A stretch of DNA of 64,000 nucleotides from Escherichia phage vB_EcoM_F1, in sequence record NC_054912.1; one strand, 5' to 3'. This document shows positions 1 through 31,257 of this stretch, one piece after another. The stretch's first letter is position 1; every line of letters begins with the position of its first letter. The notes under the pieces were generated by a model that saw only the letters and a list, made by a program, of their open reading frames with translations, had not been told where the DNA came from and did not search any database. The position numbers were made by a program, and so were the translations under genes.

Positions 1-720
1 GAAGCAAAAGAAACTTTCGGCACTGTATTCGAAGCTACCGTCAAGCAGCACGCCGTTAAATTAGCTGAATCTCATATCGCTAAAATTGCTGAAAAAGCAG
101 AAGAAGAAGTAGAAAAAAATAAAGAAGAAGCCGAAGAAAAAGCTGAGAAGAAAATCGCTGAGCAAGCTTCTAAATTCATTGACCATCTTGCAAAAGAATG
201 GCTCGCTGAAAATAAATTAGCAGTTGATAAAGGCATCAAAGCCGAACTGTTTGAATCCATGCTTGGTGGATTAAAAGAGCTCTTTGTTGAACACAACGTT
301 GTTGTTCCAGAAGAATCAGTTGATATTGTAGCTGAAATGGAAGAAGAGCTGCAAGAACATAAAGAAGAATCAGCTCGTCTGTTCGAAGAACTCAGCATGC
401 GCGACGCATATATCAATTATGTGCAGCGTGAAGTGGCATTGAGCGAAAGTACTAAAGATCTGACTGAGTCTCAAAAAGAAAAAGTCTCTGCTCTGGTCGA
501 AGGTATGGATTATTCAGATGCATTCTCAAGTAAATTGAGTGCAATCGTAGAAATGGTGAAGAAATCTAATAAAGATGAAAGCACTATTACTGAGAGTATA
601 AATACTCCTGATACTGAAGCAGCCGGACTGAATTTCGTCACTGAAGCTGTAGAAGATAAAGCTGCACAGGGTGCAGAAGATATTGTAAGTGTATATGCGA
701 AAGTCGCATCTCGTTTCTAA
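1..720 (+). CDS. 22: Prohead core scaffold protein gp22, 5'-partial (start lies upstream of window)
   Basis: Frame 1 is open from base 1 to the stop at 718-720; acidic Ala/Glu/Lys-rich translation (EAKETFGTVFEATVKQHAVKLAESHIAKIAEK...); sits immediately upstream of gene 23 as in T4. Confidence 0.85.
   Translation, partial: EAKETFGTVFEATVKQHAVKLAESHIAKIAEKAEEEVEKNKEEAEEKAEKKIAEQASKFIDHLAKEWLAENKLAVDKGIKAELFESMLGGLKELFVEHNVVVPEESVDIVAEMEEELQEHKEESARLFEELSMRDAYINYVQREVALSESTKDLTESQKEKVSALVEGMDYSDAFSSKLSAIVEMVKKSNKDESTITESINTPDTEAAGLNFVTEAVEDKAAQGAEDIVSVYAKVASRF
597..604 (+). promoter_or_regulatory. T4-type late promoter TATAAATA upstream of gene 23
   Basis: Exact TATAAATA at 597-604 inside the 3' end of gene 22, about 135 nt upstream of the gene 23 ATG. 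Confidence 0.55.
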
Positions 721-3674: not shown

Positions 3675-3698
3675 AAAGGGACCTTTCGGTCCCTTTTT
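3675..3698. terminator. Bidirectional terminator hairpin between gene 24 (+) and rnlB (-)
   Basis: aaagggacc-tttc-ggtcccttttt, A-run on one side and T-run on the other. Confidence 0.7.
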
Positions 3699-3700
3699 AT

Positions 3701-4705
3701 TTAACTTACCAATTCAATCCAAGCCGGACGAAGTACATCTTGTACCATTTTAACTAATTCCTTTTTAATCAAAGAAGGATTATCCGCTTGAGTTAGAGTA
3801 ATACCTTCACGAGAAGTTTCTTCCAAAATATCTTGAACAGTTAGTCCCATCACCTTTCCAAAATCTTTTGGACCAATTTCGCCAATTTTAGAAATAACGT
3901 TATTTACTCGGTTCAGTGTAACGTAACAAGCTAAAATTCCCACCAATTTGTTATCAGCTTCTGATAGTTCAACTTTAGCTTTAATAGGCTTATCAGACTT
4001 TTTCTTTTCACTAAATTTGGAATTCTTGCATTTAATCGCTACACGATTTCCATTATGAAGCCAAGAAGGATAACAAGGTTTCAATACATATCCTTCAGCG
4101 GTAAATACTTCGCCTTTTGCTTCGGCATTCCAAACGCATTTATTTGCATCAACTAATCCAGCATGGTCTACTGTAAAATTATAAGACGGAACAACAGAAT
4201 CCAAATCATTTGGAAGTTTAATAAGATCTTCAAATTTACCACGACCCAAAAGTGGAGCGATTTTAAACCCAAATGAATTACAAAACGATTCCATCATGTA
4301 ATCATCAACATAAGTTACATCACCACTTTCGGTAGTGACAATAATGTCAAATACATAAAAATCTTTATCGCCATAATCAACATTCTTCTGAATGCCAGGT
4401 CCAGCGAATTCGCCAAAAACTTGATAAGTCACAACAGCTGAAGTTTCCATAATTTCTTGGACAGCTTTAATAGAATCTTCGTAATTCTTTAAAATAATTT
4501 CATAACCGAAGAAATCTTCAGCAGGAAGAATTGGTCCAGTACGTTTAGCGCAAGTTACTTTATCACGCTCAATAATCAATGAGAAATTTGTGCCGTGAAT
4601 CTTTTCACGAGCTACCCATTCGCCGCCAGTCAATCCCAAGCTATAAAGTTTTTCAATAAATTTAGAGTTGTAATGATTTTCAAGACTGCTATACTTTTTA
4701 AACAT
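3701..4705 (-). CDS. rnlB: RNA ligase 2 (Rnl2)
   Basis: 334-aa ORF with nucleotidyltransferase motif I KIHGTN near N-terminus; T4 position between 24 and hoc. Confidence 0.9.
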
Positions 4706-4714
4706 AATTAATCC

Positions 4715-4993
4715 TCAAAATGTAATTTCTAACCAATCACCATCACGCTGATCACTATTAACTTTAAAGCTGAATCCTTCTTTTCTCAGCCAATCACCAA
4801 TTTCTTCAGTAATCAATTTATCGCGAGCAGTACAATAATAACTAAAATATGTTTTACCTTGTTCAGCTGCTTTATTAGCAAGTTCCGAAAAATCTTTAAT
4901 AAAACACTCTAGCTTAAACTGTTTACTTTTGAATGCTTTTTCGCGTAATTGATTAGCAAAAGATTCATTTTCATAAAGATCATACTGTTCCAT
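4715..4993 (-). CDS. Hypothetical protein (T4 24.2-like position)
   Basis: 92-aa ORF co-oriented between hoc and rnlB. Confidence 0.55.
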   Translation of the reverse strand: MEQYDLYENESFANQLREKAFKSKQFKLECFIKDFSELANKAAEQGKTYFSYYCTARDKLITEEIGDWLRKEGFSFKVNSDQRDGDWLEITF

Positions 4994-6424: not shown

Positions 6425-7105
6425 TTATTTTAATGTTACGAAAGAAGAATTGCGTGTTTCACGAATTAAAACTGATCCATCACGATTAATGTAATAAATT
6501 AAGCTAAATAAAGTTTGGTGTGCTGACGCATGCTCAAAACTTGTTGGGTGAGATTTCCAATCCGGAGTTTCAGCAATCCATTGATAAATCCACCAAGGAA
6601 CAGTGCAGAATCCTGGATTTTTTCCAATCAGCTGAAGATTCGGACTAAAGTTTTCCGGAAGAGTAAATACAGACGGCTTTTCAGATTCAATAATCTCAGC
6701 TACAGCCTGTTCAAATTTTTCTTCAACAAAAGGAGTATCTTCAATCAAAACATCGGTATTTTCAGGAATTTTATCCTTTTCTACTACTTCAATTTTAATG
6801 TCAGATTTAACCGGAGAATCAATCAGAAGTGCTGCTTCTGGATTGACTTCTTCATCGTCATATTTTAATCCCTCTGCGGCATCAGCAGCATCAATTAAGT
6901 CTTTAATAGATAACCCATCAGTCTCTGGCATAGGTTCACTAGCGAGCTTCTGGAGGGCTTCTTCAATATCAGCAACGATATTATCAAAAGATTTATTCTT
7001 TTTGACCTTTATACCAAACTGTTCAGCATATTCAGCTAATTTAGCTTTAGCTTCTTTGTTATCATCAAGAGCCTTCAGCTCTGCAATATAATCTTTATCT
7101 ATCAT
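6425..7105 (-). CDS. inh: Inhibitor of prohead protease (Inh)
   Basis: 226-aa acidic ORF between hoc and uvsW, T4 gene order and size. Confidence 0.8.
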   Translation of the reverse strand: MIDKDYIAELKALDDNKEAKAKLAEYAEQFGIKVKKNKSFDNIVADIEEALQKLASEPMPETDGLSIKDLIDAADAAEGLKYDDEEVNPEAALLIDSPVKSDIKIEVVEKDKIPENTDVLIEDTPFVEEKFEQAVAEIIESEKPSVFTLPENFSPNLQLIGKNPGFCTVPWWIYQWIAETPDWKSHPTSFEHASAHQTLFSLIYYINRDGSVLIRETRNSSFVTLK

Positions 7106-15133: not shown

Positions 15134-16228
15134 ATGGCAATTGTTAAAGAAATAACTACTGATTTAATTAAAAAGTCCGGTGAGAAAATTTCAGCCGGAC
15201 AGAGCACTAAATCAGAAGTAGTAACTAAAACATACACTGCCCAGTTTCCAACTGGGCGTGCTAGTGGTAATGACACTACAGGGGACTTCCAGGTAACAGA
15301 TCTATATAAGAATGGATTATTATTTACTGCATACAATATGTCATCTAGGGATTCTGGAAGTCTTAGATCGATGAGATCTAACTACTCTTCTGCGTCTTCG
15401 GGTATTTTGAGTACAGCTAAAAACACTATTAGTAGTACAGTATCAAAACTATCAAATGGATTAATATCAAATAATAATTCAGGAACAATAAGTAAAGCTC
15501 CTGTCGCAAACATTCTTTTACCGAGATCTAAATCTGATGTTGATACATCAACACATAGATTTAATGATGTTCAAGAAAGCCTTATCAGTAGAGGCGGAGG
15601 TACTGCTACTGGTGTGCTAAGTAATATTGCTTCAACCGCAGTATTTGGGGCACTGGAAAGTATAACACAAGGTATAATGGCTGATAATAATGAACAGATT
15701 TATACGACAGCCAGAAGTATGTATGGTGGTGCTGAAAATAGAACTAAAGTGTTTACATGGGATTTGACTCCACGTTCAACAGAAGATTTAATGGCTATTA
15801 TTAATATCTATCAATATTTTAACTATCTTTCTTATGGTGAAACAGGTAAATCTCAATACGCTGCTGAAATAAAGGGGTATTTAGATGATTGGTATCGTTC
15901 TACGTTAATTGAACCTTTATCTCCGGAAGACGCAGCTAAAAATAAAACATTATTTGAGAAAATGACAGCAAGTTTAACGAACGTTCTTGTAGTTTCAAAC
16001 CCGACAGTTTGGATGGTGAAAAACTTTGGTGCAACATCTAAGTTTGATGGAAAAACGGAAATATTTGGTCCATGCCAAATACAGAGCATTAGATTTGATA
16101 AAACACCTAATGGTAACTTTAACGGATTAGCTATTGCTCCAAACCTCCCTAGTACATTTACTCTCGAGATTACTATGAGAGAAATTATCACGTTAAACCG
16201 TGCTTCTTTATATGCGGGGACTTTTTAA
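15134..16228 (+). CDS. 48: Baseplate tail tube cap gp48
   Basis: 364-aa ORF. Confidence 0.9.
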   Translation: MAIVKEITTDLIKKSGEKISAGQSTKSEVVTKTYTAQFPTGRASGNDTTGDFQVTDLYKNGLLFTAYNMSSRDSGSLRSMRSNYSSASSGILSTAKNTISSTVSKLSNGLISNNNSGTISKAPVANILLPRSKSDVDTSTHRFNDVQESLISRGGGTATGVLSNIASTAVFGALESITQGIMADNNEQIYTTARSMYGGAENRTKVFTWDLTPRSTEDLMAIINIYQYFNYLSYGETGKSQYAAEIKGYLDDWYRSTLIEPLSPEDAAKNKTLFEKMTASLTNVLVVSNPTVWMVKNFGATSKFDGKTEIFGPCQIQSIRFDKTPNGNFNGLAIAPNLPSTFTLEITMREIITLNRASLYAGTF

Positions 16229-17151
16229 TGTATTCTTTAGAGGAATTTAATAATCAAGCAATAAACGCAGATTTCCAACGTAATAATATGTTTAGCTGCG
16301 TTTTTGCAACAACTCCATCAACTAAAAGCTCTTCGTTGATAAGTTCAATTAGCAACTTTTCTTATAATAACTTGGGCCTAAATTCAAATTGGTTAGGATT
16401 AACTCAAGGTGATATTAATCAGGGAATTACCACGCTAATTACAGCTGGCACACAAAAACTGATAAGAAAATCAGGGGTTAGTAAATATCTTATTGGTGCC
16501 ATGAGTCAACGTACTGTCCAGAGTTTATTAGGCTCATTTACAGTTGGTACATATTTAATTGACTTCTTTAACATGGCATATAACTCATCTGGATTGATGA
16601 TATACTCTGTAAAAATGCCAGAGAATAGATTATCCTATGAAACTGACTGGAACTATAATTCTCCTAATATTCGTATAACTGGGAGAGAATTAGACCCTTT
16701 GGTTATTTCATTTAGAATGGATTCAGAAGCTTGTAACTATCGTGCAATGCAAGACTGGGTTAACTCCGTTCAAGACCCAGTAACTGGATTACGTGCTTTG
16801 CCACAAGATGTCGAGGCAGATATTCAGGTTAATCTTCATTCTCGTAATGGATTGCCTCATACTGCGGTGATGTTCACCGGATGCATTCCAATATCAGTGA
16901 GCGCTCCTGAGTTATCATATGATGGAGATAACCAAATAACTACATTTGATGTTACTTTTGCGTATAGAGTGATGCAGGCTGGAGCAGTTGATAGGCAAGC
17001 TGCGCTTGAATGGCTTGAATCTGCTGCTATAAATGGTATTCAAAGCGTTCTCGGAAATAGTGGAGGTGTTACTGGACTATCTAATTCGCTTTCACGACTT
17101 AGTAGACTAGGAGGAACCTCAGGAAGCATTTCAAATATTAGTATACTATGA
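16228..17151 (+). CDS. 54: Baseplate tail tube initiator gp54
   Basis: 307-aa ORF, start/stop-coupled to gene 48. Confidence 0.88.
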   Translation: MYSLEEFNNQAINADFQRNNMFSCVFATTPSTKSSSLISSISNFSYNNLGLNSNWLGLTQGDINQGITTLITAGTQKLIRKSGVSKYLIGAMSQRTVQSLLGSFTVGTYLIDFFNMAYNSSGLMIYSVKMPENRLSYETDWNYNSPNIRITGRELDPLVISFRMDSEACNYRAMQDWVNSVQDPVTGLRALPQDVEADIQVNLHSRNGLPHTAVMFTGCIPISVSAPELSYDGDNQITTFDVTFAYRVMQAGAVDRQAALEWLESAAINGIQSVLGNSGGVTGLSNSLSRLSRLGGTSGSISNISIL

Positions 17152-17199
17152 CAGGGATTGTCAATTCGCAGAGTAAAATATTAGGAGCAATATAACAAT

Positions 17200-17217
17200 G
17201 GGGACCTTTCGGTCCCC
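17200..17217. terminator. Bidirectional terminator hairpin between gene 54 (+) and alt-region genes (-)
   Basis: ggggacc-tttc-ggtcccc with flanking A/T runs. Confidence 0.65.
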
Positions 17218-17223
17218 ATATTT

Positions 17224-17514
17224 TTATTTACGGAATGAAATGAAAGCAGAAACTGAAGCAACTAAACTGTCTTCAATATAAACTTCAATTTTTACCGGAG
17301 CTTCTGACTCAAATTTACCTGTTACTACACCCTGAAAAATACTTTCAGTCTGTTCTGGCTTTGAAAAATTTTCAGAAGGAAAAATTCCAAACTTTTTATC
17401 TGTTCCGAAAATTTTGATAAATTCATCATAAACTGCTTCATTAAAAGCATTATCAGCAGGAATAACGCCTTCAACTACAAGTTCTTGACCTAAAAAGCGT
17501 AAAGAAGATTTCAT
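17224..17514 (-). CDS. Hypothetical protein (alt.-3-like position)
   Basis: 96-aa ORF downstream of alt. Confidence 0.55.
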   Translation of the reverse strand: MKSSLRFLGQELVVEGVIPADNAFNEAVYDEFIKIFGTDKKFGIFPSENFSKPEQTESIFQGVVTGKFESEAPVKIEVYIEDSLVASVSAFISFRK

Positions 17515-17545
17515 TTTGTGTTCCTCATGTTATGTCAGTAAGACT

Positions 17546-17575
17546 ACTATAACACAACACGAGGGACTTGTAAAC
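17546..17575 (-). promoter_or_regulatory. Early sigma70-type promoter (TTTACA-17-TATAGT) within a 53-bp repeated cassette
   Basis: minus-strand gTTTACA, 17-nt spacer, TATAGT, then GAGGA Shine-Dalgarno. Confidence 0.5.
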
Positions 17576-17930
17576 TACATTTTGAACTTTTTAGTACGCG
17601 TAATAGGCATGCGTCGATTTTATACTGTTTCATTGTTTGAAGAGCAGTATCAAAAACAGCATTAATGACACCAATTGGATTTCCACCCAACTTAACTAAT
17701 GATAGTTTCTCATTAACACCTATCATTACGATATGCATCATTTTGTCGCCTGGTTTAACGTTTTATTTGTATCACCGCCAGAGGTGTATGTACAAAATCT
17801 AAATCCAGGAAGCACGCTTTCTTCGCCGGCTTGAATAGCAAAAATTTGTGGTATTTTATGCTTAGGATTTAAGTTAACAACCGGCGCCGAAGCGCCGTCA
17901 AATAATTATGTAATAAGTTCCATGATTTAT
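17547..17930 (-). pseudogene. Decayed paralog of the alt N-terminal region (premature stop and frameshift)
   Basis: minus-strand translation gives MELIT-stop, then shifted frames ...NLNPKHKIPQIF...GFRFCTYTSGGDTN... and MMHIVMIGVNEK...TMKQYKIDACLLRVLKS, paralleling Alt residues 1-125. Confidence 0.6.
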
Positions 17931-19978
17931 CCTTGAACGAACTTGTAAGGCATGTTTGCAATATCTATGCAAGACGCAATAATTCCAAGAGATGATTCTA
18001 CTTTCTGTTTAACATTTGATGAAACAAATGATGCAAAGTCAACTCTGTCTTCTATATCACCTGTCATTGTAACCAATTCACCAGTTTCCATTAAATGGTC
18101 TCCGTCATAGATTACCGATTCGGTGAGTTCTTCTGTGGTCATAACTTCAGCTTGAATAAGCTTGTTGTTAGTTCTAACTGTTCCATCGTTGTAAGATGCA
18201 TCAGTTATTTTATTAACTTTGACCATTAATCCACGTGGCAAAATGACTTCCATTTCATTTGAAGGCGCTAAACTTCCACCGGGTAAAACAACATTGACCT
18301 TATCAGCCCCAGTAATAACCCATCCAATTCCAACTAAATTATCGCTAGAATTTACTAGTCCTTCATCAGTTTTATCAATAGAAACGCTTAGACGCTTTTC
18401 GTCTGGTAAAACACCTATAGATGAATCAGTCATCCAAGTACCAAAAATATTTGGATATAATGATGTTGACACAAAGTTTCTAAAATAAAAAACTCGATTT
18501 TTTACCATTGCTTCATATATTGAAGGTAACATTCGTTGTGAACGATACAAAGTAATACCTTTTGGTAATCGTTCACCATTTTTAAAGGCTGAATCTAAAT
18601 TATCAATGGCTTGTTCTATTTCAGATGCTGTTAAAATACTTGTACGCTCATCTGGATTATATAATCCCAAAAGAGCATTATTCATGTCTACATATCCTGA
18701 ACCTACATATTCACGAATTCCGCGTTTTTGCGCTGGTGTGTATTTAGATGAATCTTTATTTTCGACTATAGGATGTAATGACCATCCAGCGGTAAGAGCA
18801 TATCCACGTAATTCTCTTCGAATAATCTTTGTTTTTATTGCATTCCAAGAATTTTGTACTAACTCATTTGCAGCATCTTGGTTTAAATGCGAATGTCTGT
18901 TAATATTTCTTTCAAACCAAGCACCTTTATATTTTTCTAAAGTATCATCGACGATAGAAGCAATAGTTTCTAAAGTTTTTATTGAAGTAATAGATTCTTT
19001 TCGTAATTTTTCTAAAGCTTTATTTTTTATTTCTGCATTAATAATGGATTCTTTATCTTCAGGAATTATAGAAGCTTCTCTGAATGTCATTCCAGCTGTA
19101 ACACTGCTAAGAGCATTCTCTAGTGCAAATCCTGAAGTAGAAATAACAGTTAATTCATTAGCATCAGAAATTAAAGGAGCGTCAGCAGGTTTATTTAATT
19201 CTGCTGCTGAAGCCTCAAATTTTTGAAACATCGGCGTTTCAAATCTAGAAGATTCCAACGACTGACTTTGTGCAATTGCTCTACGTGAAATTTTAACTTT
19301 AACGATTACAGCTTGGTCAGAACGTTTATCATTTTCTTGTGCAATAGATGCTGCAATTGCCTCATTTTTAGTTACTTGAGCTCCAGTATCTTTATTGATA
19401 TAAACATCACCGACCTTCGATTCAACTTTAGTAAAGAGCTCGGTACTAATTTCCGGAACTCCTGGAATGTCTTCTAGTGATACATTTTTGCGATGTATAA
19501 GAATATATGCATACTTTTTATCATAATCCCAGAGTTCCTTAAGAAGGACGTATCTGCCACCTGAACGACTACGGATAAGTCTATCAGCAATAACTTGAAT
19601 TTGTCGAGCTTGGCCAGCAGTTTTAGACTTAAGAATACGAAGCATACAAGCATCAATTTTATACTGACGCATTGTTTGCATTGCAACAGTAAAAACCGAA
19701 TTGATATAATTAATTGGGCTTGGACCAAGACCTTTCAATTTAGCAATTGAACCTTTAGCAGTTAATGTAAAAGGAACAATATGCATCATTTTATCGCCCA
19801 TCTTTAAATCGCGATTAGTATCACCTCCAGATGTATAGGTACATAAACGAAAGCCTGGTTGTTCAATTGCATCATCAACATGAACTGAAAAAATTTGCGG
19901 TATTTTCTTCTTTGGATTTAAGTTTGTAATTGGAAGAGTAGTATCTTCGTCAAATAATTCTGTAATTAGTTCCATCAT
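17927..19978 (-). CDS. alt: Alt ADP-ribosyltransferase (packaged, modifies host RNA polymerase)
   Basis: 683-aa ORF, T4 Alt size and position downstream of gene 30. Confidence 0.9.
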   Translation of the reverse strand: MMELITELFDEDTTLPITNLNPKKKIPQIFSVHVDDAIEQPGFRLCTYTSGGDTNRDLKMGDKMMHIVPFTLTAKGSIAKLKGLGPSPINYINSVFTVAMQTMRQYKIDACMLRILKSKTAGQARQIQVIADRLIRSRSGGRYVLLKELWDYDKKYAYILIHRKNVSLEDIPGVPEISTELFTKVESKVGDVYINKDTGAQVTKNEAIAASIAQENDKRSDQAVIVKVKISRRAIAQSQSLESSRFETPMFQKFEASAAELNKPADAPLISDANELTVISTSGFALENALSSVTAGMTFREASIIPEDKESIINAEIKNKALEKLRKESITSIKTLETIASIVDDTLEKYKGAWFERNINRHSHLNQDAANELVQNSWNAIKTKIIRRELRGYALTAGWSLHPIVENKDSSKYTPAQKRGIREYVGSGYVDMNNALLGLYNPDERTSILTASEIEQAIDNLDSAFKNGERLPKGITLYRSQRMLPSIYEAMVKNRVFYFRNFVSTSLYPNIFGTWMTDSSIGVLPDEKRLSVSIDKTDEGLVNSSDNLVGIGWVITGADKVNVVLPGGSLAPSNEMEVILPRGLMVKVNKITDASYNDGTVRTNNKLIQAEVMTTEELTESVIYDGDHLMETGELVTMTGDIEDRVDFASFVSSNVKQKVESSLGIIASCIDIANMPYKFVQG

Positions 19979-31196: not shown

Positions 31197-31223
31197 AAAG
31201 TCCTCATGTTATGTCAGTAAGAC

Positions 31224-31253
31224 TACTGTAACACAACACGAGGGACTTGTAAA
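31224..31253 (-). promoter_or_regulatory. Early promoter in second copy of the 53-bp cassette (TTTACA-17-TACAGT) upstream of alc
   Basis: 52/53 identity with 17523-17577; promoter-like hexamers plus GAGGA SD. Confidence 0.45.
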
Positions 31254-31257
31254 CAGC

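Follow-up and report, generated by a model that had tools for sequence, protein, structure and literature searches.

A probable stump of a full-length second alt gene at the alt.-1/alt.-2 locus of a T4-type phage

The region between alt and alt.-3

The DNA analysed here, referred to below as the window, is a stretch of 64,000 nt from Escherichia phage vB_EcoM_F1 (NC_054912.1). The 801 bases around the segment under study are 100% identical to Escherichia phage vB_EcoM_FN (Tequatrovirus) and 97-98% identical to many T4-type phages. On the minus strand, the genes for DNA ligase, alt.1 and alt are followed by a gene remnant and then by alt.-3, with genes 54, 48 and 29 (baseplate) converging from the plus strand. 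Comparing the ORF map with those of T4, FN, F26 and Lutter places the remnant after the stop codon of alt and ahead of the alt.-3 early promoter, with all of them on one strand. The features of the locus are as follows.

17224..17514, minus strand: alt.-3 (96 aa, DUF5498; PF17602, E 5e-64), an intact early gene outside the remnant
17522..17575, minus strand: 54-nt early-promoter/stem-loop cassette serving alt.-3 (repeat family D7, promoter scan and fold)
17547..17741, minus strand: 64-aa ORF equivalent to alt.-2, which has 67 aa in T4 (ORF list)
17575..17585, minus strand: final 11 nt of the paralogue reading frame (TCAAAATGTAG); the paralogue of phage AR1 ends in the identical sequence
17575..17923, minus strand: all that is left of the second tandem alt gene, in collinear order with the AR1 paralogue
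17586..17594, minus strand: deletion junction with the single surviving copy of CTAAAAAGT (direct sequence comparison with intact paralogues)
17738..17923, minus strand: equivalent of alt.-1, a 61-codon ORF in T4 but dead here (T4 annotation; alignment with T4, F26 and Lutter)
17882..17897, minus strand: predicted hairpin CGGCGC-UUCG-GCGCCG, lying 30 nt beyond the stop codon of alt
17927..19978, minus strand: alt, intact, encoding the packaged ADP-ribosyltransferase of 683 aa (ORF; annotated as Alt in T4 and relatives)
31201..31254, minus strand: second copy of the cassette, 98% identical (repeat family; fold -25.7 kcal/mol, z -3.8)

The Alt protein carries the Pfam domain PF03496 over residues 375-615 (E 3e-34). 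A sequence-only reading of this DNA had noted that the minus-strand segment next to alt parallels the start of that gene. The parallel is real: positions 17923-17547 resemble approximately the first 118 codons of alt. When positions 17926-17547 were compared with the whole window by blastn, the 5' end of alt matched with 70.4% identity over 203 nt (19978-19776; E 7e-21); a second block in alt (19705-19647; 72.9% over 59 nt, E 4.6e-4) and, as the sole further match with E below 0.2, the second promoter cassette were also returned. Mending the stop codon and the frameshift described below gives a translation that matches Alt residues 2-118 with 61% identity (E 6e-47); positions 2-60 and 64-120 of phrog_802 are likewise covered.

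The T4 comparison suggested by the same reading identifies the locus. The remnant region shows about 96-98% nucleotide identity to T4 overall, and 96.5% to T4 positions 123065-123450, where record NC_000866 annotates alt.-1 (61 aa) and alt.-2 (67 aa). Position, junction, frameshift, hairpin and cassette are all as in the window; in contrast to T4 alt.-1, the window copy has also been inactivated by a TAA at codon 6, translating as MELIT*, and relative to T4 alt.-2 it is short of 9 bp. The remnant is the alt.-1/alt.-2 locus of T4, ordinary and already annotated. A comment in the T4 record describes the two genes jointly as an old duplication of the first part of alt, and both appear among the paralogous duplications of alt compiled by Nolan et al. 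(2006), who attribute a full-length alt duplicate to phage 44RR (PMC1524935). The record of phage fPS-2 labels its copy "similar to N-terminal of ... Alt, putative pseudogene". In PHROGs each fragment has a family of its own (23015 for the alt.-1 equivalent and 15247 for the alt.-2 ORF) and both also match the Alt family, alt.-1 at positions 2-60 and alt.-2 at positions 64-120 of phrog_802. The review by Petrov (2010) makes no mention of alt.

As the sequence-only reading had it, the 3' end of the region runs straight into the cassette. The last codons of the alt.-2 ORF and its TAG lie inside 17575-17522, the TAG falling within the -10 hexamer of the cassette promoter. The latter comprises a -35 element TTTACA (17574-17569), a 17-nt spacer and a -10 element TATAGT (17551-17546; 5 of 6 matches), followed by an SD sequence GAGGA at the 3' end of the cassette; the promoter scan scored it 10 of 12, with a TG upstream of the -10 element. 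The cassette folds at -23.0 kcal/mol (z -4.1), a value equalled by none of 200 shuffles, and is annotated as an early promoter in fPS-65 and Lutter. Its second copy lies 13.7 kb away, in the gap that separates a putative RNA ligase gene from the following ORF, a putative alc.

A full-length second alt gene and the 1,699-bp deletion

Most database records that match the remnant align to only the first 345 nt of the query, and these are annotated with two ADP-ribosyltransferase genes. Inspection of AR1, fPS-65, teqsoen, ime09, JK08, APTC-EC-2A and two IMG/VR contigs revealed, in each case, an uninterrupted second alt gene immediately after alt (2,058 bp, 685 aa), followed by the same cassette and alt.-3. 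Such genes are annotated, for instance, as AR1_201 in AR1 and g194c in fPS-65; the ime09 copy is labelled "alt.-2". The AR1 paralogue is 42% identical to Alt overall, with approximately the first 235 residues well conserved and a divergent middle, and it has its own PF03496 catalytic domain (residues 416-620). We found no functional study of the second Alt-type enzyme in a literature search, and a search by sequence returned no PDB relatives for the structure of Alt. Citrobacter phage Moon, which belongs to another genus (Moonvirus), also carries alt as a tandem pair, with a promoter and alt.-3 coming next. Since Tequatroviruses and Moon share this arrangement, the tandem pair is taken to be ancestral.

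Sequences compared in the analyses below were 17 distinct remnants and 8 intact paralogues, 25 in all. A search of IMG/VR with Alt.-3 as anchor gave 5 loci; the sample was drawn from GenBank phage records instead. In the intact paralogue of APTC-EC-2A, codons 54-58 (nt 2607+160..175) read NRDLKMG, as in alt, instead of NKNVKPG, which looks like a short patch of gene conversion between the tandem paralogues.

With about 92-95% nucleotide identity, the remnant resembles the 5' end of the full-length second gene much more than it does alt (70%), and the 8 full-length paralogues that were read occupy the orthologous position. It consists of the first 348 nt of the paralogue, 338 nt of which are left in the window after later losses, joined to the last 11 nt; these two parts are collinear with positions 4508-4856 and approximately 6555-6565 of the AR1 locus sequence. 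The terminal 11 nt, which include the original stop codon TAG of the paralogue (17577-17575), match AR1 exactly and differ by 1 base from some of the other intact genomes. The window shares the locus with the intact gene of most Tequatroviruses and Moonvirus, and the hairpin-encoding codons and the downstream cassette with that of the Tequatroviruses, but it retains only some 17% of that gene and lacks the catalytic domain.

The boundaries of the missing part are marked by a short repeat. Intact paralogues contain two direct copies of the 9-bp sequence CTAAAAAGT, one at nt 340 of the interval and the other at nt 2039. The AR1 paralogue reads GTACTAAAAAGT followed by AAAACAAATGG near codon 115, and TGTCTAAAAAGT followed by TCAAAATGTAG at the end of the gene, whereas the window has GTACTAAAAAGT followed directly by TCAAAATGTAG. 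The junction string CTAAAAAGTTCAAAATGTAG is found in the window and in T4, and all 17 remnants have one copy of CTAAAAAGT and then TCAAAATGTAG. Intact genomes have an interval of 2118 nt, compared with 419 nt in the remnants that have decayed least and 409 nt in the window; the deletion is therefore 1,699 bp long (2118 minus 419 nt). It took codons from about 117 to 682, the entire catalytic domain included, and joined the 5' end of the paralogue to its last 11 nt out of frame. No Pfam match, to PF03496 or any other family, was obtained for the 64-aa ORF or for the undecayed 128-aa form.

A 90-mer spanning the junction was covered to at least 80% in 89 of 484 matching records, and about 395, approximately four-fifths of these Tequatrovirus records, are without the junction and are counted as carrying a tandem pair of full-length alt genes; these counts include redundant GenBank/RefSeq entries and laboratory T4 entries and do not represent independent lineages. 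Among the remaining matches listed, the records align to pieces 1-50 or 42-90 of the 90-mer, with one exception at the end of a record. Where megablast split the query in this way, the pieces overlap at positions 42-50, which are exactly the nine bases of the repeat.

On this evidence, we consider it very probable that the remnant is the non-functional stump of a full-length second alt-type ADP-ribosyltransferase gene that once stood in tandem just downstream of alt. The 3' end of this gene already abutted the alt.-3 early-promoter cassette when a single deletion between the two copies of CTAAAAAGT, presumably generated by replication slippage or short-homology recombination, removed 1,699 bp together with the catalytic domain. 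The stump then gained further lesions, which in this phage are a GAA to TAA change at codon 6, a -1 slip in a run of A residues and a 9-bp deletion. At present it may be transcribed only passively, as the 3' tail of alt messages reading towards alt.-3, and it probably yields no useful protein; its persistence could simply reflect its youth and small size. Deletions between short direct repeats are known from classical studies of T4 rII mutants, in which one copy of the repeat is kept and the intervening sequence is gone, as here. The difference is that those are laboratory mutants, while the deletion in the window is natural, fixed and present in about 89 database records.

The sequence-only reading had offered another origin, namely that just the first part of alt was duplicated and that the copy was cut by recombination at the repeated cassette; the wording of the T4 record also points this way. 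Similarity to alt does end about 20 nt short of the cassette, a second copy of which (98% identical) lies at a distance of 13.7 kb, and cassettes of the PeSL type are documented recombination points in T4-type phages (PMC2839356, PMC4122927). The 54-nt element resembles these cassettes (Arbiol 2010, Comeau 2014) in having an early promoter, a strong and stable stem-loop and recurrence in the genome, and its promoter comes close to the T4/PST consensus TTTACW-N17-TAYWAT (PMC4122927). It departs from them in that its stem overlaps the promoter spacer, the -10 element and the downstream SD, instead of forming a separate terminator stem upstream. As an origin for the remnant, however, this scheme is extremely unlikely. 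It does not account for the much greater similarity to the full-length second gene than to alt, nor for the retention of the last 11 nt of that gene. The junction lies 11 nt upstream of the cassette, in the paralogue's own 3' end and at the 9-bp repeat, and the order paralogue-cassette-alt.-3 is unchanged in genomes with the intact gene, Moonvirus too. Since the junction is at an in-gene repeat and the cassette follows the stop codon of the paralogue in all genomes, the cassette had no part in the deletion; truncation at the cassette was rejected on the intact AR1 sequence, which puts the breakpoints inside the gene. What had been read as a partial copy of alt is orthologous to the 5' end of a complete gene.

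The deletion may not have occurred on a single occasion. In its 5' segment, phage FL23 shows 5 differences to the intact gene of AR1, 11-12 to fPS-2 and EC128 and 17-22 to the other remnants, while its downstream segment is unlike that of AR1. Comparing substitutions in the upstream, N-terminal and downstream segments showed mosaic flanks, and the haplotypes on which the remnants lie are clearly distinct. The codon-6 stop (E6*) and the frameshift are found among the remnants in all four combinations, which points to recombination or recurrence. Possibly the 9-bp repeat gave rise to the same 1,699-bp deletion on more than one occasion; judging from the sequences, frequent recombination and recurrent mutation would each yield the mosaic and haplotype pattern observed.

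Later lesions and the alt.-2 reading frame

Downstream of the alt stop codon, the window copy carries three lesions in addition to the large deletion:

17906..17908, minus strand: nonsense codon TAA in place of GAA (Glu6 of the paralogue), a G to T change relative to T4 and all intact paralogues
17761..17764, minus strand: -1 frameshift, an A5 run reduced to A4 (A5 in N2, SG1 and EC128; A4 in T4 and the window)
17690..17691, minus strand: 9-bp in-frame deletion (CTTAAAAAC, codons L-K-N), from alignments

The stop after codon 5 (TAA at 17908-17906) and the frameshift (17764-17761) had both been picked out by the sequence-only reading, and both are present. The nonsense codon is carried by 11 of the 17 remnants, the window and 10 others. 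In the A5 remnants N2, SG1 and EC128 the remnant forms one 128-aa frame, and reduction to A4 splits it into alt.-1 and alt.-2. The 9-bp loss is confined to the window phage (and vB_EcoM_FN, identical here) among the remnants compared. Arranged by the lesions they carry, the remnants form a graded series:

N2 and FL23: deletion only, open 128-aa frame
fPS-2, SG1 and EC128: deletion and E6*
T4, VEc20 and two IMG/VR contigs: deletion and -1 slip (alt.-1/alt.-2)
F26, Lutter, ACG-C40, T-01 and slur08: deletion and both lesions
235Ecol030PP, HY03 and the window: deletion, both lesions and a lesion in alt.-2 (-1 in a T run, +7 by duplication, and -9, respectively)

Altogether, the 17 remnants display five different later lesions, two of which break the alt.-2 ORF. 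The lesion in HY03 is a 7-bp tandem duplication of GAGAAAC and that in 235Ecol030PP the loss of one residue in a run of T; these two frameshifts are either real or the result of homopolymer sequencing or assembly errors.

Substitutions tell a similar story. Those private to remnants comprise 10 nonsynonymous or nonsense changes against 7 synonymous ones, as compared with 2 nonsynonymous and 24 synonymous among polymorphisms in the same codons of intact genes (Fisher p = 4e-4). Within the alt.-2 part, taken by itself, the figures are 3:2 in remnants and 2:15 in intact genes, a marginal difference (p = 0.055). At the level of sequence, the pattern in the remnants is that expected of DNA freed from selection. 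The notion that the region is decaying is thus borne out by the graded lesions among the 17 remnants and by the 10:7 ratio compared with 2:24; disabling lesions and relaxed constraint, both expected of a pseudogene, are found together.

The 64-aa ORF at 17547..17741 exists as described by the sequence-only reading, which had entertained its retention as a short N-terminal peptide. Its codons 1-53 correspond to paralogue codons 62-117 minus three. Because the deletion junction is out of frame, the ORF ends in a meaningless tail: its last 11 codons (SKCSLQVPRVVL) are an out-of-frame read-through from the last 11 nt of the paralogue into the promoter cassette. The frame is open, with an ATG start, in 15 of the 17 remnants, the window included, its amino acids are nearly those of the intact paralogues, and gene callers routinely annotate it. 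The region is also transcribed in T4, where RNA of alt.-1 and alt.-2 is assigned to the "middle" class in Table S2 of a time-course RNA-seq and proteomics study (PMC9697503). One might therefore envisage the ORF as a working small protein made from the N-terminal part of Alt and, for example, modulating the packaging or function of Alt. We judge this very improbable. The frame is shifted in 235Ecol030PP and HY03 and has lost three codons in the window, private changes within it are 3 nonsynonymous to 2 synonymous, and its last 11 residues are an accident of reading frame. The product would be without the extreme N-terminus of Alt, the part which the head protease cleaves off according to a review (PMC9958956). 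By eye, only a weak AGG precedes the ATG.

Protein evidence from T4, as distinct from the present phage, goes in the same direction. In the time-course proteomics, Alt.-1 and Alt.-2 are entered as "NA", that is, not detected; Alt.-1 has all-zero LFQ values, and Alt.-2 is absent from the portion of the protein-group table that was covered (PMC9697503, Tables S2 and S3). The neighbouring Alt.-3 and the 62-aa Alt.1 are clearly detected in the same tables, so that the absence of Alt.-2 counts against a working protein, although small proteins are easily missed and non-detection of one of 64-67 aa in shotgun data is weak evidence. A useful peptide is accordingly an unlikely reason for retention of an ORF that is broken in two natural phages and 3 codons shorter here, whose substitutions look relaxed (p = 0.055) and whose T4 counterpart went undetected by mass spectrometry. 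Equally, we regard as very improbable the variant in which Alt.-2 (64-67 aa) is a young microprotein derived from the conserved, presumed head-targeting N-terminal region of the packaged ADP-ribosyltransferase, and could, for instance, compete with Alt or tune its incorporation into proheads.

The conserved hairpin and the surroundings of the stump

The stump contains the GC-rich hairpin at 17882..17897, which is predicted to fold into a six-pair stem with a UUCG loop. The sequence-only reading was right about its presence, but had counted it as an insertion and a sign of decay; the segment is part of the in-frame coding sequence (DGASAPV) in every intact paralogue examined, and the hairpin was rejected as an inserted element on these grounds. 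Compared with its counterpart in alt, the segment lacks one codon, which indicates that sequence was replaced and not gained. No variation was seen in the hairpin across all 25 sequences, remnants and intact paralogues alike; the Moon paralogue is without it. It was likewise rejected as an intrinsic terminator, having no T tract after it and not being called by the terminator scan. An Rfam search of positions 17000-18200 returned only sub-threshold chance matches.

Given this invariance, part of the stump could have a role in cis, and the sequence makes a role of the hairpin at the 3' end of alt mRNA possible. The broader proposal, compatible with a dead coding part, is that the stump is kept mainly for a cis-acting role as RNA or DNA: the stable C(UUCG)G hairpin would shield alt mRNA at its 3' end or set where that end lies, and the rest of the stump would keep late transcription of alt at a distance from the early promoter cassette of alt.-3. 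All 25 sequences have the hairpin unchanged, although other parts of the segment commonly vary at synonymous sites, its stem has six pairs closed by a UUCG loop, and other GC tetraloop hairpins lie nearby at gene ends, one after alt.1 and one at 17198-17219. In addition, CUUCGG hairpins are reportedly a feature of T4 intergenic regions. Nevertheless, we find the proposal unlikely. The absence of a T tract and of a terminator call at the hairpin speaks against it, as does the observation that its 66-nt context folds no better than shuffled sequence (z -1.4). The hairpin lies inside the coding region of the intact paralogue, and is hence older than the truncation; it spans only five codons, so that its invariance carries little statistical weight; and Moon does without it. 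A non-functional stump of the second alt gene remains the preferred reading.

The pseudogene itself was already known; what is added here is its derivation from a full-length paralogue through a repeat-flanked deletion of 1,699 bp. In practice, alt.-1 and alt.-2 should be annotated as one pseudogene, not as two hypothetical proteins or as "ADP-ribosyltransferase"; labels of the latter kinds, including "hypothetical protein", are attached to them in many phage records. T4 is atypical in this respect: the majority of its near relatives possess another Alt-type enzyme of full length, which T4 and the present phage have lost, and this bears on how far host-takeover biology worked out in T4 can be generalised. 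The locus offers a clean natural case of a short-repeat deletion followed by stepwise erosion, although it matters little beyond annotation.

Downstream of the stump, the two cassettes have in common a long predicted stem that pairs the promoter spacer and the -10 element with the SD (GAGG) of the downstream gene, which is alt.-3 for one copy and the ORF following the putative RNA ligase gene for the other. In the folding model, this stem would bury the ribosome-binding site in transcripts reading in from upstream, while transcripts started within the cassette would contain only the 3' half of the stem and have the site free. The alt.-3 protein of T4 is abundant from early times, according to PMC9697503. 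C-terminal extensions of T4 Alt.-3 allow escape from the defence system CmdTAC by blocking the degradation of CmdA (PMC11618068), and for that reason the alt.-3 stop codon and the sequence following it (17224 and downstream) are of functional interest.

On the far side of alt.-3, the gene 54 ORF (16228-17151, plus strand) encodes 307 aa in the window, FN and F26, as compared with 320-321 aa in T4, AR1 and Lutter, and the gap between gene 54 and the convergent alt.-3 is 72 nt instead of approximately 27 nt. At 17198-17219, between these convergent genes, lies a perfect GC hairpin (ATGGGGACC-GAAA-GGTCCCCAT), for which the terminator scan gave a call on each strand; sequences related to this hairpin and its flanks are also present at 3678-3724 (repeat family D10).
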